The translations under genes and the position numbers were made by a program. The notes beneath the pieces were generated by a model that did no database searches, was not told where the DNA came from, and saw nothing but the letters and a program-made list of their open reading frames with translations. This document shows positions 4,068 through 61,606 of a stretch of 61,815 nt of DNA, piece after piece (within the stretch, counting starts at the first letter, position 1; the number at the start of each line of letters is the position of its first letter). The stretch covers positions 1-61,815 of the forward strand of contig JACDEV010000003.1 of the NCBI GenBank assembly GCA_013816135.1, written 5' to 3'. This DNA comes from Patescibacteria group bacterium. Lineage in GTDB: Bacteria; Patescibacteriota; Minisyncoccia; Phycocordibacterales; DATDWN01.

Positions 4068-5741
4068 ATGGCTTATTTACTTTTTCCAGGACGACATCTA
4101 TTGACCACAGCTTTTCAATCAGATTACCTTTGGAGCATACTTCGACTTCCTATAAACAAACTTGAACTGTTAGGAGAATACAAAGGTGATGGTGAAGATA
4201 AAATCGATACCATAATTTTTGCAGTCACTTCCGCCAACCAAGAGAATTCACGTTATAACCCGATCCCGTTTCATATGAGATCTATTGAACTTGATAGATT
4301 CTCAGAAGATTATAGAAATGCATTAGGAGTAAAAACCGAAATAGTTGCAATACCGCACTTTCATCCAAACGAACATTTCGGAGAGTATATCCTAAAAGAG
4401 TACTCTGAAAAAACAGAAAATCAGACAGTTCTTACCCCAAAAAATACTATAGTTCTTTGTTCAACTCTTGCTTTAATACAGCAATATCAGAAACTAGGAT
4501 TTGCTGTCCTTACATCCGAATATGATGTTAAAGAAGAAAAACTAAAATCAAAAACCCCGATTGACTACCTAAGACTGTTCGCATCAAGCGAAGGTGAATG
4601 GGAAATGAATGCTGAATTTACAACTGGAGTTTCCAAGGCAACTCAAAAATTCTGGAAAGATTTTCCTTCTGTTCCAACAAAGATCCTTCGTCTCTGGAAA
4701 GACCCACTGCTTACAGAAGAAGGTAGTCTGACCAAAACAAGAAACTATTCAACATACGCCCAAGGAATGGGCCATACAGCACTTCTTGATGCAAAATATA
4801 AAGACATAAATCAATCTGTAAAGACTGGAAAGATAGTGGACGAGGGCTGTGCTGACGGTGCCCTGATGACACTTCTTGCAAAAGATTTTTCTGACTCAGA
4901 TATTATAGGAATTGAGATCACTAGCGAGTTTACTGCTAGATGTTTAGAACGGCAAAGAGCAGGAGAGTTTGGTGGGACATTTGTACATTTTCATCAGAGG
5001 AACTTGATGGATAAGATTTTTGAAGATAACTCAATTGATACAACTATTTGTAATTCAACAACCCATGAGATATGGTCATACGGTGACAGAGAAGAGTCCT
5101 TGTTTAAGTATCTAAAGCTTAAGTTTGATCAGCTGTCAAAAAATGGAAGATTGATTATTCGCGATGTGGTGGGTCCAGAAGATAAGGAAAAAATAGTTTA
5201 TCTGGAATTGAATGATAGAGACGGTTCAAATGATAATATTTTTAAAATCTGTTCCAACCAGGATGAATTACGCGATCACCTATCAGGATTATCTACCTCC
5301 GCTCGGTTTATTCGTTTCACAGAAGATTATTTGAAAGATATGAGAGAAGGTGAAAGAAGAGGGGATGAAACTAAAATAAAATTTGAAAAAACAATAATAG
5401 ACAATAAGAACTATTTCGTCCTAAGGCTCAAAGATGCAATGGAGTTTTTGACTAAGAAAGATTATGTAGATAATTGGCAAAGCGAATTAAATGAAGAGTT
5501 CGCATTCTGGAGTTTTAGTGAGTGGAAAGATATTTTAAGAAAAATAGGTTTTCATATAATTGAGAACCCAAATGAACTTGAAAGATCGTCTCGAGCATTC
5601 GGTATTTCATGGATAGTAGATAATAGACTGAAGGGTAAAGGAACTATATATACAAAGGACGGTAACTCATTAAATGTTTTACCATATCCGCCTACAAATA
5701 TGGTTATAATAGCTACAAAAGAAGGAACATTTGACAATTAA
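4068..5741 (+). CDS. two-domain protein: N-terminal nucleotidyltransferase-like region fused to a class I SAM-dependent methyltransferase
   Basis: The SAM motif I-like IVDEGCADGALM lies mid-protein. The N-terminal LLFPGRHLLTTAFQ resembles a degenerate GRFxPxHxGH of NMNAT-type enzymes. It lies directly upstream of pnuC-nadR. Confidence 0.55.
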   Translation: MAYLLFPGRHLLTTAFQSDYLWSILRLPINKLELLGEYKGDGEDKIDTIIFAVTSANQENSRYNPIPFHMRSIELDRFSEDYRNALGVKTEIVAIPHFHPNEHFGEYILKEYSEKTENQTVLTPKNTIVLCSTLALIQQYQKLGFAVLTSEYDVKEEKLKSKTPIDYLRLFASSEGEWEMNAEFTTGVSKATQKFWKDFPSVPTKILRLWKDPLLTEEGSLTKTRNYSTYAQGMGHTALLDAKYKDINQSVKTGKIVDEGCADGALMTLLAKDFSDSDIIGIEITSEFTARCLERQRAGEFGGTFVHFHQRNLMDKIFEDNSIDTTICNSTTHEIWSYGDREESLFKYLKLKFDQLSKNGRLIIRDVVGPEDKEKIVYLELNDRDGSNDNIFKICSNQDELRDHLSGLSTSARFIRFTEDYLKDMREGERRGDETKIKFEKTIIDNKNYFVLRLKDAMEFLTKKDYVDNWQSELNEEFAFWSFSEWKDILRKIGFHIIENPNELERSSRAFGISWIVDNRLKGKGTIYTKDGNSLNVLPYPPTNMVIIATKEGTFDN

Positions 5742-12024: not shown

Positions 12025-12171
12025 AGAAAAAATATGTTTTTTCTTCTGGGAATCGGACGACGGAGCGGGCACACAGCGAGCTCGCTGGGTCGCGAGTCGG
12101 TGCCCAGACTAAAATGTTTTGACGAAAACATTTTAAGTCGAGGGAGATTTCCATCAACAGCTCAAAGAAAA
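12025..12171 (+). repeat. tRNA-linked GC-rich structured element, copy A
   Basis: In order: A/T hairpin; reverse complement of the tRNA-Thr T-loop/stem; GACGGAGCG; hairpin; CGCGAGTCGG; long hairpin; 22/26-nt copy of the tRNA 3' end plus trailer. Confidence 0.6.
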
Positions 12172-18357: not shown

Positions 18358-18540
18358 CAAAATAGCGAAGCTATTTTCCTGTCCAGAAGCAAAGCGTAGC
18401 TTTGCGCTTGGACTCGAACGACGGAGCGATTCGTGTTTTAACAAAAACACGACGCGAGTCGGCGCCTAGACTTTTTCCGAGCGACGGCAAGGAAAAAAGT
18501 CGGAGGAGAGAGTGTACTCACGATCCAAGTCTGGCAGCCA
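18358..18540 (+). repeat. tRNA-linked GC-rich structured element, copy B (ends in a second tRNA-Gln 3' end with CCA)
   Basis: A/T hairpin; TGTCCAGA; hairpin; CTTGG+ACTCGAA (inverted T-loop); GACGGAGCG; hairpin; CGCGAGTCGG; hairpin with GAGCGACGGC loop; CCAAG TCTGGCA G CCA. Confidence 0.6.
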
Positions 18541-44282: not shown

Positions 44283-44295
44283 AATAAAATAAAAT

Positions 44296-44319
44296 AAAAC
44301 TACTCGAGAGAGTAGTTTT
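44296..44319. terminator. bidirectional terminator between convergent genes
   Basis: AAAACTACTC gaga GAGTAGTTTT with A/T runs on both sides. Confidence 0.7.
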
Positions 44320-45490
44320 ATTTTGTGTCTGTAATAGCTAATGAATAATGACAACCTAAGATCATTAAAGTTCCGATAACTATGAATATATATTGAAAAG
44401 GAATGAACTGGAGACTTAGTGTTGCAAGTAATGGTCCGACTATATATGACAATGGTCTTGCTAAACGAAAAAAACTGATAACATCTGTTTTTTCTTGATT
44501 AACCTGTTTGAAAAAATAGCTTTCTGTACTGATTTCAACAAAACTAGCTCCTATACGGGTTATAAATAGAAGCACAGCCCATATCCAGAAGATTTTAGCA
44601 GTGACAAAGCTTATGAATAGAGTTGGAAGTCCCATTACAATAAATCCTATAGTAAGAAACTCTTTTTCTCCATATTTATTATCAGCTAGATTTCCTACAG
44701 GAAGTTCAAATAAAACAAAAGGAAGGAGCATTATAGTAAACATAACGCCGACTTCTGCCCAAGAAAATCCAATTATTTTTATGAGATATAAAGGGACATA
44801 TATGACCATATAAGCATAGAATAACTGCAACAAAAACTGCGAAATGAAAATATTGTAGAGGTTTTTGTTTTTAAGGTATTCTACCAATGTTTCTTTTATT
44901 CTGATTGGGGTAGAGCTTGTAGCCCTGCTGAAATTTAATCTCTTTATTAGATTAAAAAGAGGAACCATTAATCCTGCTGACACAATATAGACATAATTAT
45001 ATGTATTTTGAAATACCAGTAATGCAATCACAGAAGGTGCAAGTACAATAGTTATATTTGTTAAGGTGAGATAAGTGGCTCTTATGCTTCCTGTAACTGA
45101 TTCAGTTGATACACTTTCTACAAATACATCCATATTAAACAGAATAAGTGATATACAAACCAGATGAATTATGAAGTAAAGACCTACAAGGAAAGGGATT
45201 GTGGTTACAGCTAGACCTACCGTTGTAAGAAATTCAAGTATAAGTACGAATAAAGAAAATTTATAACTTCCTAATTTATCCAATATCCTAGATGCATTCA
45301 ACAAGAGAGAAATATCCAATATTGATCCTATTATATACAAAGCAGAGACTTGGGTGTTGGTAAAGATGGTGTTTAAGAAAGACGAATTTATATATATGAC
45401 AAGTGCATAGTGGAAGGAAATAAATACATTTGAAAGAAACAAGGTATTTAGTAATTTGTTTTGTTTGAAAGGAAGGAGTAATTTATCCAT
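44318..45490 (-). CDS. polytopic transporter, MFS-like
   Basis: About 12 hydrophobic helices. The ATG at 45490 (MDKLLLPF) is preferred, because the GTG at 45565 lies inside repeat X. Confidence 0.55.
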   Translation of the reverse strand: MDKLLLPFKQNKLLNTLFLSNVFISFHYALVIYINSSFLNTIFTNTQVSALYIIGSILDISLLLNASRILDKLGSYKFSLFVLILEFLTTVGLAVTTIPFLVGLYFIIHLVCISLILFNMDVFVESVSTESVTGSIRATYLTLTNITIVLAPSVIALLVFQNTYNYVYIVSAGLMVPLFNLIKRLNFSRATSSTPIRIKETLVEYLKNKNLYNIFISQFLLQLFYAYMVIYVPLYLIKIIGFSWAEVGVMFTIMLLPFVLFELPVGNLADNKYGEKEFLTIGFIVMGLPTLFISFVTAKIFWIWAVLLFITRIGASFVEISTESYFFKQVNQEKTDVISFFRLARPLSYIVGPLLATLSLQFIPFQYIFIVIGTLMILGCHYSLAITDTK

Positions 45491-45548
45491 ATTTATATTG
45501 TAGCGCAGAAAAAACTTCTCGTCATGATGAGCATAAAGAATACTTTTG

Positions 45549-45625
45549 TTATTTAGAGTACGCACTTTTCTTGCTAGAAAAGATGCTCGAATCCTCGCGC
45601 CGTCGCGCTCTGAGCCTCTAAATAA
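45549..45625. repeat. GC-rich 63-nt core repeat (copy X) enclosed by a 10-bp flanking stem
   Basis: Core 45556-45618 is 62/63 identical to 52892-52954. TTATTTAGAG (45549-58) pairs with CTCTAAATAA (45616-25). Confidence 0.7.
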
Positions 45626-45637
45626 TAAAAATATTCT

Positions 45638-47536
45638 TTAAACTCCAAGTATCACTGGAATCACAATAGGCTTCTTTGCGGTTTTTTGGAACAAGAATCG
45701 TCCGACATTGTCTGCTAGATTGGATTTAACGAAATCAAAGTTGATTGGGTTCATTCCTCGAGTAGTATCTTCTACAGTCTTTTTGATTATCATTCGAGCA
45801 TTTGATAGAAGCTCCTGTGATTCACGTAGATAAACAAATCCTCTAGCAATGATATCAGGGGACTTCTTAAGTTTTCCGGTTTTGGCGTTGATACTGACGA
45901 TCACTACGAAAATACCGTCTTGAGCTAACATTTTTCTATCTCGTATAACCATTTCTTGAACATTTCCAATAGAAAACCCGTCAACTATCATAATGCTATC
46001 TGGAGCTTGTTCTTTTAGTCTTACGAAGGTCTGTCCTTCATTTTGGATTTCTAATATAGAGCCGTTATCAGGAACAATAATATTTTCTTTCGGCATTCCT
46101 ACTGCAGTTTCAGCTAGATCTTCGTGAACTCTAAGCATGTAGTGATTTCCGTGCATAGGCATAAAGAATTTTGGAGCTATCATTTTGTGCAACCATTCAA
46201 GTTCTCCACGGTTACCGTGACCTGTTGAGTGGATGTAAACATCAGATGTTCTGTAGTGGATTATTTTTGCACCTTGTCTAGCTAAGTTATCTTTTAGTTT
46301 CTGAACAGCTTTTTCGTTTCCAGGAATAATAGATGAAGAGAGGAGCACTGTATCTCTTGGAGTTATCTTGAAATATTTGTGGGTCTTATTGGACATTCGC
46401 ATCAATGCAGCGAATTCATCTCCTTGAGCTCCAGTAGCCAAAACAATGATTCTGTCTGGAGGGTAATTTTCCATATCAGCAGTAGTAATAATAGTTTCCG
46501 GCTTTATTTTCAGCATTCCCATATTGAGAACAATCTCGATATTTGTTTTCATGCTTCGTCCTTCAACTACTACTTTTTTTCCATACTTTTCAGCAATCAT
46601 AACTATTTTCATTACACGTTCAAGCTGGGATGCGAAAGTTCCTATGACCAAACGGCCTTTAGTGTTTTTGATGATGTTATCCAAGTTTTCGTGCACCAAT
46701 CTTTCAGGTGTTGAAAACCCTGGGTTATCAACATTAGTTGAGTCCATCATAAGGAGAAGAACTTTTTCGTTTTTGAATCTTCCGAATTCTTTAAACTCAG
46801 CGTCTGTTGGCACTCCGTCGTTATGGTCTAGTTTGATATCACCAGGAGTAACAATGGCTCCGTAGGGAGTGTCAATTATAATACCCATTGAATCTGGAAT
46901 AGTATGAGTTACAGCAAAAAATCTAACTTTCAGTTTACCGAAACTTATAATGTCTTCCTTCTCAACTATCTTCATATCTAAAGCAGGTAAATGAGGAAAT
47001 TCTTCCTGACGCTTCTTTATCATTATTGAAGTAAGAGCCCGAGTATAAAGAGGGGGATTGCCGATACGATCCATGATGTATGGTATTCCTCCGATATGGT
47101 CTAAGTGACCGTGAGTAATGATTACTCCTCGAATCTTATCTTTTCTATCCTCTAAGTATTTTGTGTTAGGTAAAATATAGTCTACTCCTGGAGTGTCATC
47201 GTCCTTAAATTGAAATCCCATATCGATAACAATAATGTCATCCTTGTATTCAACAATAGTCATATTCTTTCCAACTTCTTCTACTCCTCCAAGGGGAATT
47301 ATACGGATGCTATCTCCTGCTGGTGGAATGATATCGTCAGTTTTTTTTGTCATTCTCATTGGTGGCATGCTTCTCTGAGAGAAAGATCTTTTTGAAAAAC
47401 CTCCTCTACCTCCACGTCCTTGTGCCGGAGCTGTGTGTAGAGATGGTTTTGTTTCTGTAGGTACGCTAGTAGAAAGGGCGTTTTCAAGCGCACTATCGAA
47501 CTTATCTCCACTGTTATTGTCTTTTGTATTATCCAT
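45638..47536 (-). CDS. rnj: ribonuclease J with an N-terminal RGG-like extension
   Basis: Metallo-beta-lactamase HGHLDH, beta-CASP and C-terminal domains. N-terminal GRGGRGGF low-complexity region. Confidence 0.9.
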   Translation of the reverse strand: MDNTKDNNSGDKFDSALENALSTSVPTETKPSLHTAPAQGRGGRGGFSKRSFSQRSMPPMRMTKKTDDIIPPAGDSIRIIPLGGVEEVGKNMTIVEYKDDIIVIDMGFQFKDDDTPGVDYILPNTKYLEDRKDKIRGVIITHGHLDHIGGIPYIMDRIGNPPLYTRALTSIMIKKRQEEFPHLPALDMKIVEKEDIISFGKLKVRFFAVTHTIPDSMGIIIDTPYGAIVTPGDIKLDHNDGVPTDAEFKEFGRFKNEKVLLLMMDSTNVDNPGFSTPERLVHENLDNIIKNTKGRLVIGTFASQLERVMKIVMIAEKYGKKVVVEGRSMKTNIEIVLNMGMLKIKPETIITTADMENYPPDRIIVLATGAQGDEFAALMRMSNKTHKYFKITPRDTVLLSSSIIPGNEKAVQKLKDNLARQGAKIIHYRTSDVYIHSTGHGNRGELEWLHKMIAPKFFMPMHGNHYMLRVHEDLAETAVGMPKENIIVPDNGSILEIQNEGQTFVRLKEQAPDSIMIVDGFSIGNVQEMVIRDRKMLAQDGIFVVIVSINAKTGKLKKSPDIIARGFVYLRESQELLSNARMIIKKTVEDTTRGMNPINFDFVKSNLADNVGRFLFQKTAKKPIVIPVILGV

Positions 47537-49316: not shown

Positions 49317-49331
49317 CGGGAAATATATATA

Positions 49332-49371
49332 CGAATATGCGAATGGAACGAATGATACGAATGTAGCGAAT
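49332..49371. repeat. five phased CGAAT repeats (8-9 bp period)
   Basis: CGAAT at 49332, 49340, 49349, 49358, 49367. Confidence 0.7.
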
Positions 49372-49392
49372 AATACAATCCAATAACTTTCT

Positions 49393-49432
49393 ATTCGTAG
49401 CTATTCGGAGATTCGAATAATTCGTATATTCG
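49393..49432. repeat. five phased ATTCG repeats (inverted orientation of the left array)
   Basis: ATTCG at 49393, 49403, 49411, 49420, 49428. Confidence 0.7.
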
Positions 49433-49441
49433 TATGTTTAT

Positions 49442-52289: not shown

Positions 52290-52865
52290 ATGAATCAAAG
52301 CTTTTTTCAAAGAAATATGAAGTGGATCGTGGTCGTTGGTGTTATTTTGCTAGTTCTAGTGTGGGGAGTGTCAAAAAAGAATTCATTTGTAACTCAAAAC
52401 GAGCAGATAAATGTACAGTGGGCACAAGTTGAAAACCAATATCAAAGACGTTTTGATTTGATCCCTAATATAGTTGAGTCAGTAAAGGGTGTAGCAAAAC
52501 AAGAAACAGCTGTTTTCGGTGCAATAGCAGAAGCTAGAACAAGATACTCAGGTGCTGTAACTCCAGACCAGAAAGCTCAAGCTGCCTCACAAATGGAATC
52601 AGCTCTTGGTAGACTACTCGTTATTTCTGAAAACTATCCAGTACTACAATCTTCTCAAGCCTATAGAGACCTAATCACAGAGTTAGAGGGTACAGAAAAC
52701 CGAATCTCAGTTGAGAGAATGAAATACAACCAAGAAGTTAAGACTCTAAACACTAGTGTCAAAGTTTTCCCTTCATCACTTGTTGCTAGTTTGTTTGGTG
52801 TAAAAGAAAGAGCTTATTTTGAAGTTCCGAAGGAGGCACAAGTTGTTCCGTCTGTGAAGTTCTAA
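52290..52865 (+). CDS. lemA: LemA family protein
   Basis: N-terminal TM helix. VQWAQVENQYQRRFDLIPN and NYPVLQSSQAYRDL are typical LemA blocks. Confidence 0.85.
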   Translation: MNQSFFQRNMKWIVVVGVILLVLVWGVSKKNSFVTQNEQINVQWAQVENQYQRRFDLIPNIVESVKGVAKQETAVFGAIAEARTRYSGAVTPDQKAQAASQMESALGRLLVISENYPVLQSSQAYRDLITELEGTENRISVERMKYNQEVKTLNTSVKVFPSSLVASLFGVKERAYFEVPKEAQVVPSVKF

Positions 52866-52879
52866 AAATTGCTCTTCCT

Positions 52880-52966
52880 CATAATTTTTTGGAGTACGCA
52901 CTTTTCTTGCTAGAAAAGATGCTCGAATCCTCGCGCCGTCGCGCTCTGGGCCTCCAAAAAATTATG
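52880..52966. repeat. GC-rich 63-nt core repeat (copy Y) enclosed by a 15-bp flanking stem
   Basis: Core 52892-52954. CATAATTTTTTGGAG (52880-94) pairs with CTCCAAAAAATTATG (52952-66). Confidence 0.7.
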
Positions 52967-52971
52967 ACTCA

Positions 52972-53889
52972 ATGCAATTTTCCCTAAATACAATGCAAAA
53001 ACTACTAAAATATTTTGCAATTCTGTCATTTCTTCTACCCATTTCACTTTTTGCTTTTGTCGTACCTGCAAAACCAACTGGATTTGTTCAGGATTATGCA
53101 AATATACTTTCTCCAGAGCAGATAAATCAGCTCGAGACGAAACTTGAAGCTTACGAGAAAAATACTACAAATGAAATTGCTGTTGTGACGATTCAGTCCC
53201 TTGATGGTGATGCTATTGAAAATGTTGCACAGGATATTTTTACGAAGTGGGGAATCGGTAAAAAAGATAAGAATAACGGAGTTTTACTTCTAATTTCTCT
53301 TTCTGATAGAAAAACTAGGATCCAAACGGGTTACGGTGTTGAGGGACAGCTTACAGACATAGGAACATCCTATATTCAGAGAGAAATTATTACTCCAGCG
53401 TTTAGAAATGGTGATTATTATTCGGGTATAAATGGAGCGGTAGATAAGATGATAGAAGCTTTAGGTGGAAATCAAATAGTTCCATTAGATTACGCTGTTT
53501 CTCAAAGAACCTCCAGTTTTCCTTGGAATTTTATTTTAATTTTTATTATCTTTGGTGTTCAAATCCTTACTGCAGTGCTTGCTCCATCTAAGTCTTGGTG
53601 GGCTGGTGGAGTTATCGGTGGAGTTTTTGGAGGAATAATTTGGCTTACAAATATTGTTTCTGGAATATATGCAATATTTGCATTTATTGTTCTAGTCATT
53701 CTTGGATTGATTTTTGATTATTTTGTTTCTAAGGCTTACACACAAAAAAAGACAACAGGATCATTTCCTCCTTGGTTTTTCTGGGGAGGTGGAGGTGGAG
53801 GATTCGGCGGGGGTAGAAGTGGAGGAGGTGGTTTCGGAGGATTTGGTGGAGGTTCATCAGGTGGTGGCGGATCTTCGGGAGGGTGGTAA
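52972..53889 (+). CDS. TPM-domain (YgcG-like) membrane protein with a Gly-rich tail
   Basis: VQDYANILSPEQ ... EIAVVTIQSL ... NNGVLLLISLSDRKTRIQTGYGVEGQLTD. Follows lemA, the usual pairing. Confidence 0.8.
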   Translation: MQFSLNTMQKLLKYFAILSFLLPISLFAFVVPAKPTGFVQDYANILSPEQINQLETKLEAYEKNTTNEIAVVTIQSLDGDAIENVAQDIFTKWGIGKKDKNNGVLLLISLSDRKTRIQTGYGVEGQLTDIGTSYIQREIITPAFRNGDYYSGINGAVDKMIEALGGNQIVPLDYAVSQRTSSFPWNFILIFIIFGVQILTAVLAPSKSWWAGGVIGGVFGGIIWLTNIVSGIYAIFAFIVLVILGLIFDYFVSKAYTQKKTTGSFPPWFFWGGGGGGFGGGRSGGGGFGGFGGGSSGGGGSSGGW

Positions 53890-53911
53890 ATCCGCACACT
53901 AACTTTCATTT
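53890..53911. repeat. left arm of a 22-bp perfect inverted repeat flanking the GIY-YIG gene
   Basis: ATCCGCACACTAACTTTCATTT is the exact reverse complement of 54170-54191. Confidence 0.9.
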
Positions 53912-53915
53912 CGTT

Positions 53916-54182
53916 ATGTTTTATATGTATATATTAAAAAGTAAGAAAAATGGCGAACTATATGTTGGTTCTACCAATAATCTGCGAGCTAGATTTATAA
54001 AACATAACAAAGGAGAGGTGACTTCTACACAGAGCAAAAGACCTTACATCTTAGTTTATTACGAGGCATATACTGCAGAAGGAGATGCGCGTAGACGTGA
54101 AAAAATGATAAAGTTAAGAGGACAAGCAAGGAATCAATTAATACTAAGATTAAAAGATACACTAGCGCAAAATGAAAGTTAG
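53916..54182 (+). CDS. GIY-YIG nuclease family protein (stand-alone Uri-type domain)
   Basis: YMYILKSKKNGELYVGSTNNLRARFIKHN (GIY...YVG...R...H/N) and a later E. The stop codon lies inside the right inverted repeat. Confidence 0.75.
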   Translation: MFYMYILKSKKNGELYVGSTNNLRARFIKHNKGEVTSTQSKRPYILVYYEAYTAEGDARRREKMIKLRGQARNQLILRLKDTLAQNES

Positions 54183-54706: not shown

Positions 54707-54722
54707 TTCTATAATTTTAATT

Positions 54723-54860
54723 GGAGAGTTCGCATAGCGGTCTGGTGTTGAAATGCGATGAGCATTTCAAAGACGGAGCATGGCGATGCGAGTCGGGGTC
54801 GAGGAAATTTTTTCCAAAAAATTATCCGTGACCGAGCTTGGAAAGCGGGTGCTATAATGG
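54723..54860 (+). pseudogene. disrupted copy of tRNA-Ser(GGA) carrying structured element copy C
   Basis: 54723-54747 matches the 5' 25 nt of the intact tRNA (1 mismatch). An 88-nt insert (54748-54835) carries GACGGAGC...GCGAGTCGG. Then comes the anticodon arm CGAGCTTGGAAAGCGGGT. No T arm or 3' acceptor strand. Confidence 0.6.
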
Positions 54861-54956: not shown

Positions 54957-55127
54957 CAAACAAATTGTTTGCAATTTGTTCGTGAGAGTAAGTAAGGTCA
55001 TGTTATGACCTTACGTGGAGATTCGAAAGACGGAGCGGGTACTAGTCGAGCACGACTGGTCGCGAGTCCGGGTAGGGAAAATTTTCGAGCGACGGCCATA
55101 AAATTATTCCTGACCGAATTTCTCCGC
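54957..55127 (+). repeat. tRNA-linked GC-rich structured element, copy D
   Basis: A/T hairpin; GAGAGT; hairpin; GGAG+ATTCGAA (inverted T-loop of tRNA-Ser); GACGGAGCG; hairpin; CGCGAGTCCG; hairpin with CGAGCGACGGCC loop; CGAATTTCTCC GC. Confidence 0.6.
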
Positions 55128-55819: not shown

Positions 55820-56812
55820 ATGAATAAAAAACTAGCCGTAGCCATAACAGCTCTTCTTGTGTTAGCTGTGATTTTTTATAAGCAATATAAACCTATTAAC
55901 CAGTCTAACCTTCTTAGTTCCGTAGAATACTCCCATATAAAAAATGAATTGTTAGATGTGGTAGTAATTAAAAATCCTACAGAAGCATTATCCTCGTTAA
56001 AGATAAAAATGGATAATCCTTTGGTATCATCCAGATGTCATTCACTGACACATGATATAGGGCACGTAGCGTATGAAAAATATAAAGATTTTGATATAGC
56101 AATGAAATATCAAGATGACATATGTGGTGGAGGATATCTACACGGAATTATTGAAAGAGTATTCAAGGATTCGTCCGATATAAACAAAGAAATGAATACA
56201 ATTTGTAAAAGGTATACTCGGGAGGATGATTTAGATAAATGTTATCACGGAGTTGGACATGGCTTCATGTATTATACAAATAATGACTTGCCAAAATCAT
56301 TGAGTATGTGCAGTGAATACAGAAGTAATCAAACAAAAATATCATGTTCGGAAGGAGTTTTTATGGAAAATTTTGGTACGGATACCGTAGACCATCCTTC
56401 AAATTTTCTTGATTCTAATAATCCAGCATATCCTTGTATTCAGCAAAACATTTTTTATAAAGGCAGTTGTTACTTTTATGCACCGATATATTATCTAAGT
56501 CTTCATGATGATAATTACCAAGCTGGATTTGCATGGTGCCAGACTCTAGAAAGTTCATTTAAAATGCGGTGTACGAGTGGAATGGGAAGTCGAGTAATGA
56601 AAAAATATATTACCCAAAAGGATATAGCTGAAAAGATTTGTTTACTTAAAAATAAATTTGAGACCAGTGCCTGCATTGATGGGCTTGTTAGTTATTATTT
56701 ACTTCAAAATAACTCTTTAAATTTAGCTCGTGAAATGTGTAATGATTTCAATGATGAAGATAAAGTTTCCTGCCTGAATTCAGTAACAAAACGAGAAAAT
56801 TTGTTTAATTAA
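55820..56812 (+). CDS. hypothetical Cys/His-rich exported protein
   Basis: N-terminal TM helix. Repeated C...H.(V|I)GH modules (CHSLTHDIGH, CYHGVGHG). Confidence 0.45.
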   Translation: MNKKLAVAITALLVLAVIFYKQYKPINQSNLLSSVEYSHIKNELLDVVVIKNPTEALSSLKIKMDNPLVSSRCHSLTHDIGHVAYEKYKDFDIAMKYQDDICGGGYLHGIIERVFKDSSDINKEMNTICKRYTREDDLDKCYHGVGHGFMYYTNNDLPKSLSMCSEYRSNQTKISCSEGVFMENFGTDTVDHPSNFLDSNNPAYPCIQQNIFYKGSCYFYAPIYYLSLHDDNYQAGFAWCQTLESSFKMRCTSGMGSRVMKKYITQKDIAEKICLLKNKFETSACIDGLVSYYLLQNNSLNLAREMCNDFNDEDKVSCLNSVTKRENLFN

Positions 56813-56839
56813 AAAAACCTCCAATTGGAGGTTTTTTTA
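56811..56839. terminator. bidirectional terminator between convergent genes
   Basis: AAAAAAACCTCC aatt GGAGGTTTTTTT. Confidence 0.75.
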
Positions 56840-60037: not shown

Positions 60038-61606
60038 ATGAATAATCACACCAGAAAATTTTTCATCTATACTCGCAAATCTACCGATACAGAAGATCGG
60101 CAAGTTAGAAGCATTTCGGATCAACTGGCCGAGTTAAAAGAGTTAGTGGTTAAAGAACAAATTGAGGTTGTTGATATTTTCGTGGAAAAGCAAACTGCTA
60201 AAGCTCCGGGTCGGCCAGTATTCAATGAAATGCTTCTCCGTATCGAAGCAAATGAGGCGAGTGGGATTTTAGCGTGGCATCCTGACCGCCTAGCTCGTAA
60301 TTCTGTTGATGGTGGAAAGATAATATATTTGCTTGATACGGGAAAAATTGCCGAGCTAAAATTCCCAACTTTCTGGTGTGATACTACGCCACAAGGTAAG
60401 TTCATGCTTTCCATTGCTTTCTCTCAATCCAAATACTATATCGATAACTTATCGGAGAATATCAAGCGTGGACACAGAAACAAAGTGAAAGACGGTATAT
60501 GGCCTCAAATGTCGCCTCTGGGCTATGTAAATGTCAAAGGTGCTGGAATAGTACCCGATGAAAATATCGCTCCGTTAATCAAGAAAACATTTGAGGCCTA
60601 CGCAACTGGAAATTTCACTTTGCGACAACTGCACGATAAGTTTAACGCTCTTGGATTGAGTAGAAAGAATGGAAAGGTGCTTTCCGTTTCAAACTATCAA
60701 CAAATTTTGAAAAATCCGATATTCACGGGGTTAATGAGATATAGTGGTGAAATATACGAAGGAAAGCACAAACCGATTATCACAAAGAAACTTTTTGATT
60801 CTGTTCAAGAGGTGATGAGTCGAAAATCTAAACCGCATAGCAAAGGACTGAAACCATTTTTGTATAGAGGATTTTTCCGTTGTGGAGAATGTGGATGTTT
60901 TATCACTACCGAAACACAGAAAGGTCATAACTATTTGCGATGTACTAAACGGAAAAATCCTTGTTTGCAAAAATATGTCCGTGAAGAAATCATCACTTCT
61001 CAAATTGCAGAAAGTATCAAAAAAGTTTCTTTGCCACTCGATTGGACAAATTGGATGATTGCCGAAAATGAAAAAGATCGGCAATCAGAAACCCAATCGA
61101 GTGAGATTTTTTCTCAAAAAACAAAAGATGAAATTTCTCTTTTAGATTCAAAAGTTGAAAAGTTGATGAACTTATATTTAGAAAATGTTTTGTCTTTGGA
61201 AGAATATCGTGATTCTAAAAATAAGTTAGTGAATCAAAAACAACTTTTAAAAGAGAAATTATCGGCTTTTGAGAAAAAATCTCATAATCGGTTCGAACTT
61301 ACCGATAAATTCCTAAAAGCCAATGTATCCAATATGGAATTGGCTAACGAGAAAACAAATGAAGAAATTCTTCATTTGTTTAAAAAAGTCGGTTCGAACT
61401 TTCAAATCTTGAATCGAACCGTCTTTTTTGAGCCACGCTCTGCGTGGCGAACCCTTTCAGATTCAGGATTTTTTGGGGGGAATTCAGAACAGACGGCACT
61501 TCGTGCCGACCATATTTTTGCTTCCGAACCCGATTTCGTTTTTTGGCGGTATGTTCTGGACAAAGTTCGAACCTTTTTTGAAATGAATCCTGACGAAGAA
61601 ATCTGA
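60038..61606 (+). CDS. large serine recombinase (integrase/invertase type)
   Basis: Resolvase catalytic domain (IYTRKSTDTEDRQ, HPDRLARN), recombinase domain, zinc ribbon (CGECGC...LRCTKRKNPC), coiled coil. Adjacent to a tRNA gene. Confidence 0.9.
   Translation: MNNHTRKFFIYTRKSTDTEDRQVRSISDQLAELKELVVKEQIEVVDIFVEKQTAKAPGRPVFNEMLLRIEANEASGILAWHPDRLARNSVDGGKIIYLLDTGKIAELKFPTFWCDTTPQGKFMLSIAFSQSKYYIDNLSENIKRGHRNKVKDGIWPQMSPLGYVNVKGAGIVPDENIAPLIKKTFEAYATGNFTLRQLHDKFNALGLSRKNGKVLSVSNYQQILKNPIFTGLMRYSGEIYEGKHKPIITKKLFDSVQEVMSRKSKPHSKGLKPFLYRGFFRCGECGCFITTETQKGHNYLRCTKRKNPCLQKYVREEIITSQIAESIKKVSLPLDWTNWMIAENEKDRQSETQSSEIFSQKTKDEISLLDSKVEKLMNLYLENVLSLEEYRDSKNKLVNQKQLLKEKLSAFEKKSHNRFELTDKFLKANVSNMELANEKTNEEILHLFKKVGSNFQILNRTVFFEPRSAWRTLSDSGFFGGNSEQTALRADHIFASEPDFVFWRYVLDKVRTFFEMNPDEEI
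61430..61483. repeat. right arm of the 54-bp perfect inverted repeat (inside the recombinase 3' coding region)
   Basis: GAGCCACGCTCTGCGTGGCGAACCCTTTCAGATTCAGGATTTTTTGGGGGGAAT. Confidence 0.95.

Follow-up and report, generated by a model that had tools for sequence, protein, structure and literature searches.

A candidate mobile palindromic repeat with a nearly frozen three-way-junction tip in Patescibacteria

A hairpin between lemA and the TPM-domain gene of a Patescibacteria group bacterium, in the 61,815-nt stretch of contig JACDEV010000003.1 analyzed here (the window), belongs to a family of elements that is multi-copy, non-coding, intergenic and missing from the orthologous spacers of relatives. 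Comparison of the copies indicates that compensatory changes maintain the helices of the element and that its junction sequence is nearly frozen. The reading that we cautiously prefer is that it constitutes a new non-autonomous mobile palindromic repeat, similar to MITEs, REPINs and BOX elements, whose hairpin would be under selection. The unit measures ~105 to 125 nt: its outer stem is short, its internal loop contains conserved pyrimidine-rich motifs, an A/T-rich helix (P1) covers 10 to 25 bp, and the tip is a G/C-rich three-way junction. We propose that the element inserts as a complete hairpin and that the folded tip serves as recognition module for a putative trans-acting factor, possibly a protein that recognizes the tip in single-stranded DNA or RNA and copies the element to new intergenic sites. 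Because the arms would need only to pair, they could drift through compensated substitutions, or one arm could be corrected from the other by hairpin-templated repair; the near-identity of cores within one genome may reflect recent spread or gene conversion.

Structure of the hairpin and pairing of its arms

The initial annotation described the copy between lemA and the TPM gene (copy Y) as an exact 15-bp closing stem around a core shared with a second copy in the window (copy X). The stem is real, as 52880-52894 (CATAATTTTTTGGAG) is the exact reverse complement of 52952-52966 (CTCCAAAAAATTATG), and it extends 1 bp further than claimed to a perfect 16 bp. Beyond it lie a 6 × 6 internal loop and an 8-bp outer stem (Table 1), whose first base is also the final A of the lemA stop codon (52863-52865). 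Every full copy folds in the same order: outer stem, internal loop, P1, J1/2, P2, J2/3, P3, a single C and the 3' arm of P1. Written as RNA, P2 reads GCACUUUUCU-UGCU-AGAAAAG(A)UGC and P3 reads CUC-GCGC-CGUC-GCGC-UCUG-GRG, with UAC and UCGAAUC as the joining strands J1/2 and J2/3. The copy Y hairpin has a predicted energy of ~-43 kcal/mol, and the G+C content of the core is ~60%, against 36% for the window.

Table 1. Features of the element in the window (copies Y and X) and the lemA-TPM spacers of relatives; the L039 positions are those of that contig.
Feature	Position	Strand	Details
Outer stem 5' arm, copy Y (AAAATTGC)	52865-52872	+	Pairs with 52974-52981 in minimum-free-energy and centroid folds
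Internal loop 5' side, copy Y (TCTTCC)	52873-52878	+	Within left-flank motif AATCTCTT-CTC
P1 5' arm, copy Y (TCATAATTTTTTGGAG)	52879-52894	+	16 bp, perfect; covariation across copies
Junction J1/2 (TAC)	52895-52897	+	Invariant among type-A copies
P2 hairpin (GCACTTTTCT-TGCT-AGAAAAG(A)TGC, bulged A)	52898-52922	+	Folds and covariation
Junction J2/3 (TCGAATC)	52923-52929	+	Invariant; sequence T-loop-like
P3 (CTC-GCGC-CGTC-GCGC-TCTG-GGG) and closing C	52930-52951	+	Folds; comparison of X and Y
P1 3' arm, copy Y (CTCCAAAAAATTATGA)	52952-52967	+	Pairs with 52879-52894; covariation
Internal loop 3' side, copy Y (CTCAAT)	52968-52973	+	Within right-flank motif (A)CTCAA(C)
Outer stem 3' arm, copy Y (GCAATTTT)	52974-52981	+	Fold pairing with 52865-52872
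Copy X	45529-45645	+	Core 45559-45615; R1 model 112.9 bits, R2 model 99.4 bits
lemA-TPM spacer, L032			LemA identity 84%; 8 nt
lemA-TPM spacer, L033			LemA identity 81%; 8 nt
lemA-TPM spacer, L045			LemA identity 77%; 4 nt
lemA-TPM spacer, L047			LemA identity 77%; 40 nt
lemA-TPM spacer, L036			LemA identity 78%; 50 nt
lemA-TPM spacer, L034			LemA identity 77%; 65 nt, unrelated hairpin
lemA-TPM spacer, L039	10556-10677		LemA identity 80%; 122 nt, unrelated A/T-rich hairpin, no G/C core

Shuffles, Markov simulations and fold z-scores all argue against a chance origin, as the annotation had judged. Copy Y is the sole perfect inverted repeat of at least 15 nt with a spacer of 20 to 130 nt in the window, and 200 first-order Markov simulations of the window yielded none; when the inverted repeats of the window are ranked by length, copies X and Y are the top two. 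The two copies share their secondary structure, with fold z-scores of -5.4 to -7.7 against shuffles on both strands, and no core matches are expected in shuffled sequence.

The two cores are the same, as claimed: the 57 nt at 52895-52951 recur in copy X with one difference, G at 52949 against A at 45613, which keeps the P3 pair (U-G versus U-A). Including the GAG/CTC ends, the shared block is 63 nt long at 98.4% identity. P1 of copy X is longer, at ~25 bp (45534-45558/45616-45640), and contains one G.T and one C.A mismatch. That the stems of the two copies share nothing, as had been stated, is too strong, given that 9 of 15 arm positions are identical; the six that differ are all compensated on the other arm. 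P2 and P3 pairing is identical in X and Y, yet P1 carries six compensated differences. Judged from these sequences, the contrast would require either gene conversion or homogenization of the core within the genome, or re-templating of the arms. Arm re-templating, if true, would be new biology, and tRNA-linked modules that carry inverted T-arm copies (see below) hint at it.

Across copies, the left arm follows the consensus AATCTCTT-CTC-n-CATATCC-TTTTTGGAG and the right arm CTCCAAAAA-GGATATG-n-CTCAAC, followed by GAGATT in some copies. The pyrimidine motif AATCTCTT-CTC is common to the left flanks of copies in other genomes and sequencing runs, and (A)CTCAA(C) recurs in the right flanks of other copies. 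Since the arms share a consensus across genomes, they are homologous and travel with the core; the two flanking stems are therefore variations on one family consensus and not the independent stems that they had been taken for. The outer stems, at the same place in each copy, differ in sequence (AAAATTGC, GAATAATTCTTT, ACACAATTT and AATCTC).

The annotation had also considered a required closing helix, which would be called into question by other copies of the core lacking flanking complementarity. Both flanks are available for eight copies (four complete, and X30, X37, X3 and X15b with flanks taken from the loose ends of contigs), and in all eight they are complementary. Cognate arms in these eight copies pair at a mean of -16.6 kcal/mol, compared to -7.5 kcal/mol for non-cognate arms, and the cognate partner ranks first in six of them. 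An ungapped, core-anchored alignment of seven copies, in which the cores of X30, X37 and X3 were filled in from the reference (their contigs differ by 0 to 1), has 14 of 17 P1 pairs altered on both sides. Paired cells make up 92% of this alignment as observed and 81% in shuffles, with 0 of 500 shuffles as high; in a control with the partner slid, 40 to 55% of cells are paired. P2 covaries as well, with C-G replaced by U-A in L001 and L024 and swapped to G-C in a copy from run X4 (C52906G and G52913C). These results support the required closing helix, and the compensatory changes in P1 and P2 indicate that hairpin formation is selected or mechanistically enforced.

Copy number, spread and the spacers of relatives

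Words of the core occur at a depth of 100 to 147 in the source soil metagenome run, whereas the flanks have a depth of 9.6. Copies are found on at least 17 contigs of that run, most of which have a depth of 7.8 to 9.8, near that of the window itself. Together, the core-to-flank depth and the contig depths suggest ~10 to 15 copies in the genome of this population. Assemblers typically break contigs at repeats, and the Logan contig carrying lemA stops inside the element. More than 20 public runs contain core 31-mers, and their habitats span soil, wastewater, freshwater, groundwater, fish and rhizosphere.

An exact-pattern scan of metagenomes located a copy between priA and def in two JGI metagenome contigs of identical sequence (L001 and L003), plus one chance match. 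The exact 31-nt core pattern had no match in genome contigs; a looser pattern gave 21 loci there, of which one is real (L024) and the others are coding DNA of high-G+C genomes. L024, a GTDB contig titled 'Candidatus Saccharibacteria', has its copy between smpB and a tmRNA-like 5' end, although ARAGORN called no tmRNA at this smpB spacer. Two scans of viral contigs returned chance matches in coding DNA and nothing else, and phage and plasmid records held no match to the element. The known type-A sites (lemA/TPM, RNase J/MFS, priA/def and smpB/tmRNA-like) are thus unrelated contexts, occupied in both orientations. At copy X both neighbors lie on the minus strand, with the RNase J stop at 45638-45640 and the probable MFS start at ~45490; the copy is oriented opposite to both, whereas copy Y in that orientation is sense. 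In the R1-plus orientation, the element is sense to its neighbor genes at three of five loci, antisense at one and located in a divergent spacer at one.

A diverged homolog (L039v; R2 model, 94 bits) lies at 9049-9179 of L039, in the spacer between secG and an ORF; L039 is a syntenic relative and comes from the metagenome that also contained L003. The homolog differs in core sequence (~60% identity), but its architecture and flank motifs are preserved, as is the UGCU loop of P2. The closest named LemA relatives of the window belong to Zambryskibacteria, Paceibacterota and Minisyncoccia, which places its organism among Patescibacteria of the Paceibacteria type, and the core is near-identical in this Paceibacteria-like genome and in the Saccharibacteria-labeled L024.

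Genes of the window confirmed by Pfam include those for LemA (52290-52865), the TPM-domain protein, a GIY-YIG ORF, NUDIX, the MFS transporter and RNase J. In relatives the TPM protein starts with ATGCAAAAATATTTTGCA, to which the ATG at 52993 (MQKLLKYFA) is equivalent here, compared to a first in-frame ATG at 52972. The true start is therefore probably 52993, judging by this alignment, which would give a lemA-TPM spacer of 127 nt. At its other end, the TPM gene encodes a long glycine-rich C-terminal tail (53800-53889; GGGGGGFGGGRSGGGGFGGFGGGSSGGGGSSGGW). The last two codons of lemA, whose loss could be imagined as an effect of the insertion, are lacking here and also in the relative P0012.

Comparison of this intergenic region in relatives, as the annotation had advised, gave spacers of 8 nt in the closest ones, L032 and L033, and of 4 nt in L045 (Table 1). 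At the site of copy X, the syntenic L034 has 20 nt between RNase J and MFS, compared to 147 nt here. Since the closest relatives have no hairpin at these sites, the ~115-nt hairpin was inserted as a whole, and the stems came with the core. Other insertions also occur at both junctions. L039 has a 115-nt A/T-rich hairpin at RNase J-MFS (4837-4951), and its hairpins in the two spacers have 15- to 21-bp arms that do not resemble those of the element; L045 has a GIY-YIG fragment and a small ORF at RNase J-MFS, and L036 has two extra genes there. From these comparisons, the two junctions appear to be recurrent landing sites for several kinds of insertion. Further downstream in the window, a small ORF of the GIY-YIG nuclease family (53883-54182; Pfam E value 4.7e-15) lies between the TPM gene and NUDIX; in L034 and L039 NUDIX directly follows TPM, and the ORF here looks like another insertion.

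The spacers of the relatives bear directly on an alternative raised in the annotation, hairpin-loop targeting, in which a core of 57 to 63 nt would have inserted into the loop or center of pre-existing A/T-rich hairpins, e.g., terminators, with the arms being host sequence. Several features speak for it: A/T-rich palindromes that are long and perfect and have tiny loops are numerous in this genome (in the window at 2-49, 44291-44324, 56810-56839 and 61353-61381), P1 of L024 (AAAAAGAG...CTCTTTTT) has the order of A-tract and T-tract found in such terminators, and copy X resembles a consensus element with ~18 extra bp of P1 on both arms. Moreover, the very two spacers that X and Y occupy here contain long A/T-rich hairpins without a core in L039, and L034 has a different hairpin between lemA and TPM. 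However, the L039 and L034 hairpins have no sequence in common with the arms of Y or X, and the closest relatives, with spacers of 4 to 8 nt at lemA-TPM and 20 nt at RNase J-MFS, have no older hairpin to target. In addition, the arms and internal-loop motifs are homologous across genomes, so they travel with the core, and neither a coreless TTTTTGGAG...CTCCAAAAA hairpin nor an extra flank motif was found elsewhere in the window. We therefore regard loop targeting as quite improbable. The window palindromes themselves have perfect arms of 14 to 24 nt and loops of 0 to 4 nt, and at least those at 2-49 and 56810-56839, which have an A-tract/stem/T-tract form, look like bidirectional intrinsic terminators.

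In run X4, the lemA-TPM copy of a close relative, the ortholog of copy Y, keeps the left-flank motif and the right arm, while its left arm and most of its core are gone. This contig was considered as a case of core swapping, which was rejected: what remains is a degraded ortholog of copy Y rather than an exchanged cassette. The decay suggests that the element is dispensable at this locus. An effect of the element on lemA-TPM coupling, as the annotation supposed, is plausible given the increase of the spacer from 4 to 8 nt to 127 nt. In any lemA-TPM co-transcript, a hairpin of ~-43 kcal/mol would probably uncouple translation or create a site of processing or pausing.

Comparison with known repeats and structured RNAs

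The mobile palindromic repeat that we favor has counterparts in several known classes, from each of which it also differs. Like MITEs, e.g., the Correia elements of Neisseria, it is short (MITEs being ~100 to 150 bp), non-coding, multi-copy and intergenic; its whole unit forms a long hairpin as single-stranded DNA or as a transcript, its copies separate or join neighboring genes, and the corresponding sites of relatives are empty. In contrast, MITEs have conserved terminal inverted repeats that are bound by a transposase, and here the termini vary and the center is conserved. MITEs are also flanked by target-site duplications and have a parent IS. No clear direct repeats were seen in comparing filled with empty sites of relatives at LemA identities of 77 to 84%, where boundaries are uncertain by several nt, and no candidate transposase or parent IS was identified for the element. 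The case for mobility comes from presence and absence among relatives at this level of LemA identity and not among near-isogenic strains.

REP and REPIN sequences, linked to RAYT transposases of the Y1 HUH type, are likewise dispersed extragenic palindromes in which the hairpin is maintained and stem changes are compensated, and it is as folded single-stranded DNA that they are presumed to be mobilized in trans. REPs, however, are 20 to 40 nt long with a conserved 5' GTAG, and the element has no GTAG-hairpin motif; REPINs have conserved arms and a variable loop, whereas here the tip is conserved and the arms are variable. The BOX elements of Streptococcus pneumoniae (boxA-boxB-boxC), which we compared by description only, are likewise modular intergenic repeats (~100 to 200 nt) that form stable stem-loops, have no known transposase and may affect the expression of neighbors, but their conserved modules are the boxA and boxC arms, in contrast to the varying arms here. 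We know of no BOX element with a three-way-junction tip. PATEs derived from IS200/IS605 have subterminal hairpins at both ends and no inverted termini, and they insert 3' of a fixed tetra- or pentanucleotide. P2 and P3 of the element might be taken for two such hairpins, but they are unlike each other; the element does have inverted termini, and no fixed left-flank target was evident in ~12 left flanks.

Searches against known RNA classes were negative. Copy Y had no match at E ≤ 10 in Rfam 15, which includes hammerhead, twister, twister-sister, pistol, hatchet and HDV-like ribozymes, and copy X had sub-threshold matches at chance level only. Inspection by eye found the hammerhead core boxes on neither strand. 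A terminator scan found no intrinsic terminator at X or Y on either strand, and U tracts beyond the outer stem do not occur consistently across copies. No promoter-like sites were found at copy Y. There is no conserved ORF between the copies, and a peptide search with the four open frames of the core against a protein database gave nothing; a small protein from the ATG at 52919 was rejected, as it would have 22 aa in Y and 12 aa in X. TIGR-Tas arrays are tandem and unrelated to the element, and a literature search by sequence string and keyword returned nothing relevant.

A weak match was obtained to the SAM-I riboswitch. Copy X on the minus strand lies in the 5' region of the MFS gene, has an AGAG, a GC hairpin and a P3-like GCA..GUGC helix with an unpaired base, and scored 20.6 bits against RF00162 (clan CL00012) in cmscan (E value 0.026 in a 271-nt search), so that a variant of this clan controlling the downstream transporter could be imagined. 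This score is far under the RF00162 gathering score of 44.4, P4 is absent, the match is unlisted at E ≤ 1 in a search of the whole window and copy Y does not match RF00162. Moreover, many copies in both orientations next to unrelated genes, rather than upstream of sulfur or methionine genes, are unlike a SAM-I riboswitch, and we consider such a variant extremely unlikely.

A more serious alternative, which we regard as possible but less probable than mobility, is that the copies are functional RNAs of one structured family, encoded as small RNA genes or serving as cis-acting modules, possibly on the minus strand. Activity or protein binding would then reside in the three-way junction, with P1 needed as its closing helix, and copies would be gained and lost like tRNA genes. 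Invariant joining strands with covarying helices (P1 and P2), and a G/C-rich structure (~60% in the core) in an A/T-rich genome (36% G+C), are what Rfam-type non-coding RNA motifs display. Two observations count in this respect against the mobile reading: the near-identity of the core between L024 and the window fits functional constraint on an RNA equally well, and L039v preserves architecture, flank motifs and the UGCU loop at ~60% core identity, as structured RNA families do when they evolve. On the other hand, a high copy number, both orientations and an insertion-like distribution are atypical of such RNAs, ~10 to 15 near-identical copies per ~1-Mb genome would be unusual for a bacterial non-coding RNA gene, and the ortholog in run X4 has decayed.

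Several observations favor the minus strand as the functional one. Arm mismatches of the A.C or C.A kind in the plus-strand reading, which become G.U on the minus strand, outnumber the reverse by 12 to 4 in a hand tally; G.U closing pairs in minimum-free-energy folds number 15 on the minus and 4 on the plus strand; and minus-strand folds are more stable by 2 to 13 kcal/mol in seven of seven copies. The minus-strand layout, GA-[GC hairpin]-GAG-N8-12(UCGAG)-[AU hairpin], is shared with modules that closely follow three tRNA genes and lie on the strand of the tRNA, and GCGCGACGGCGCGAG is identical in the tRNA-linked module of L034 and in the minus strand of the element. The strand evidence is in conflict, however, as the lone core difference between X and Y gives U-G if the plus strand is read and C.A if the minus strand is, and G.U pairs are scarce in the arms (4 of 178 plus-strand pairs). 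If the minus strand is functional, three of the four type-A copies with known neighbors would be antisense between co-directional genes, without a promoter-like site. One copy occurs in a contig of a run labeled RNA-Seq, the single such run; its source is 'metagenomic' and its contigs are undirected, and it may hold DNA. The mobile-repeat and functional-RNA readings are compatible with each other.

tRNA-linked modules and significance

A second G/C-rich repeat family in the window is absent from Rfam and lies directly downstream of tRNA-Thr, tRNA-Gln and tRNA-Ser(gga) (12049-12110, 18408-18470 and 55017-55100), with a partial copy at 54766-54810. Each tRNA-linked copy opens with an exact 11- to 13-nt reverse complement of the T-arm of its own tRNA (GGGAATCGGAC, CTTGGACTCGAAC and GGAGATTCGAA), followed by GACGGAGCG, a variable hairpin and GCGAGTC(G/C)G, and then by CGAGCGACGGC in the Gln and Ser copies. 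The trailer can pair over at least 20 bp with the 3' half of the tRNA. Just upstream of the real tRNA-Ser lies a partial tRNA-Ser(gga) duplicate (54709-54860; acceptor/D-arm and an anticodon-arm-like part), which is split by a ~85-nt G/C-rich module and for which ARAGORN makes no call. The same arrangement occurs at 12253-12400 of L034, where the tRNA-Ser-linked module holds GCGCGACGGCGCGAG, the exact reverse complement of a 15-nt stretch of the element's P3 (CTCGCGCCGTCGCGC). Overall, the layout of these modules resembles the minus strand of the element. A further repeat of the window, just downstream of secG, is an inverted array at 49323-49441 with ~5 CGAAT followed by ~5 ATTCG (31-nt arms, 57 nt between); by its sequence, it could be a cluster of protein-binding sites.

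The exact inverted copies of the neighboring T-arm suggested a broader hypothesis, in which the element and the tRNA-linked modules would form one Patescibacteria-specific superfamily of mobile structured RNA modules that act on the minus strand and whose arms, specific to each copy and almost free of mismatches, are made anew at each insertion by inverted copying of one flank. The arms would be made by hairpin-templated synthesis, and the role might be, e.g., that of a protein-recognition or processing signal or of a small ribozyme. We consider this proposal improbable as a whole, and to our knowledge insertion by inverted copying of one flank has no described bacterial counterpart.

The genomes of Patescibacteria (candidate phyla radiation) are tiny and densely packed, and we are aware of few non-coding elements described in them. 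Copies of the repeat break assemblies and come between tightly paired genes, lemA and TPM being one example. Even as no more than a selfish palindromic repeat, it would be the first defined family of that kind for this group, among the databases searched. Should the link to the tRNA-trailer modules prove true, this would suggest that one system of RNA recognition serves both in these organisms. A tip that is frozen across distinct lineages, held by arms whose changes are compensated, may offer a handle on a protein-nucleic-acid system, be it a mobilizing enzyme, an RNA-binding factor or a processing pathway.
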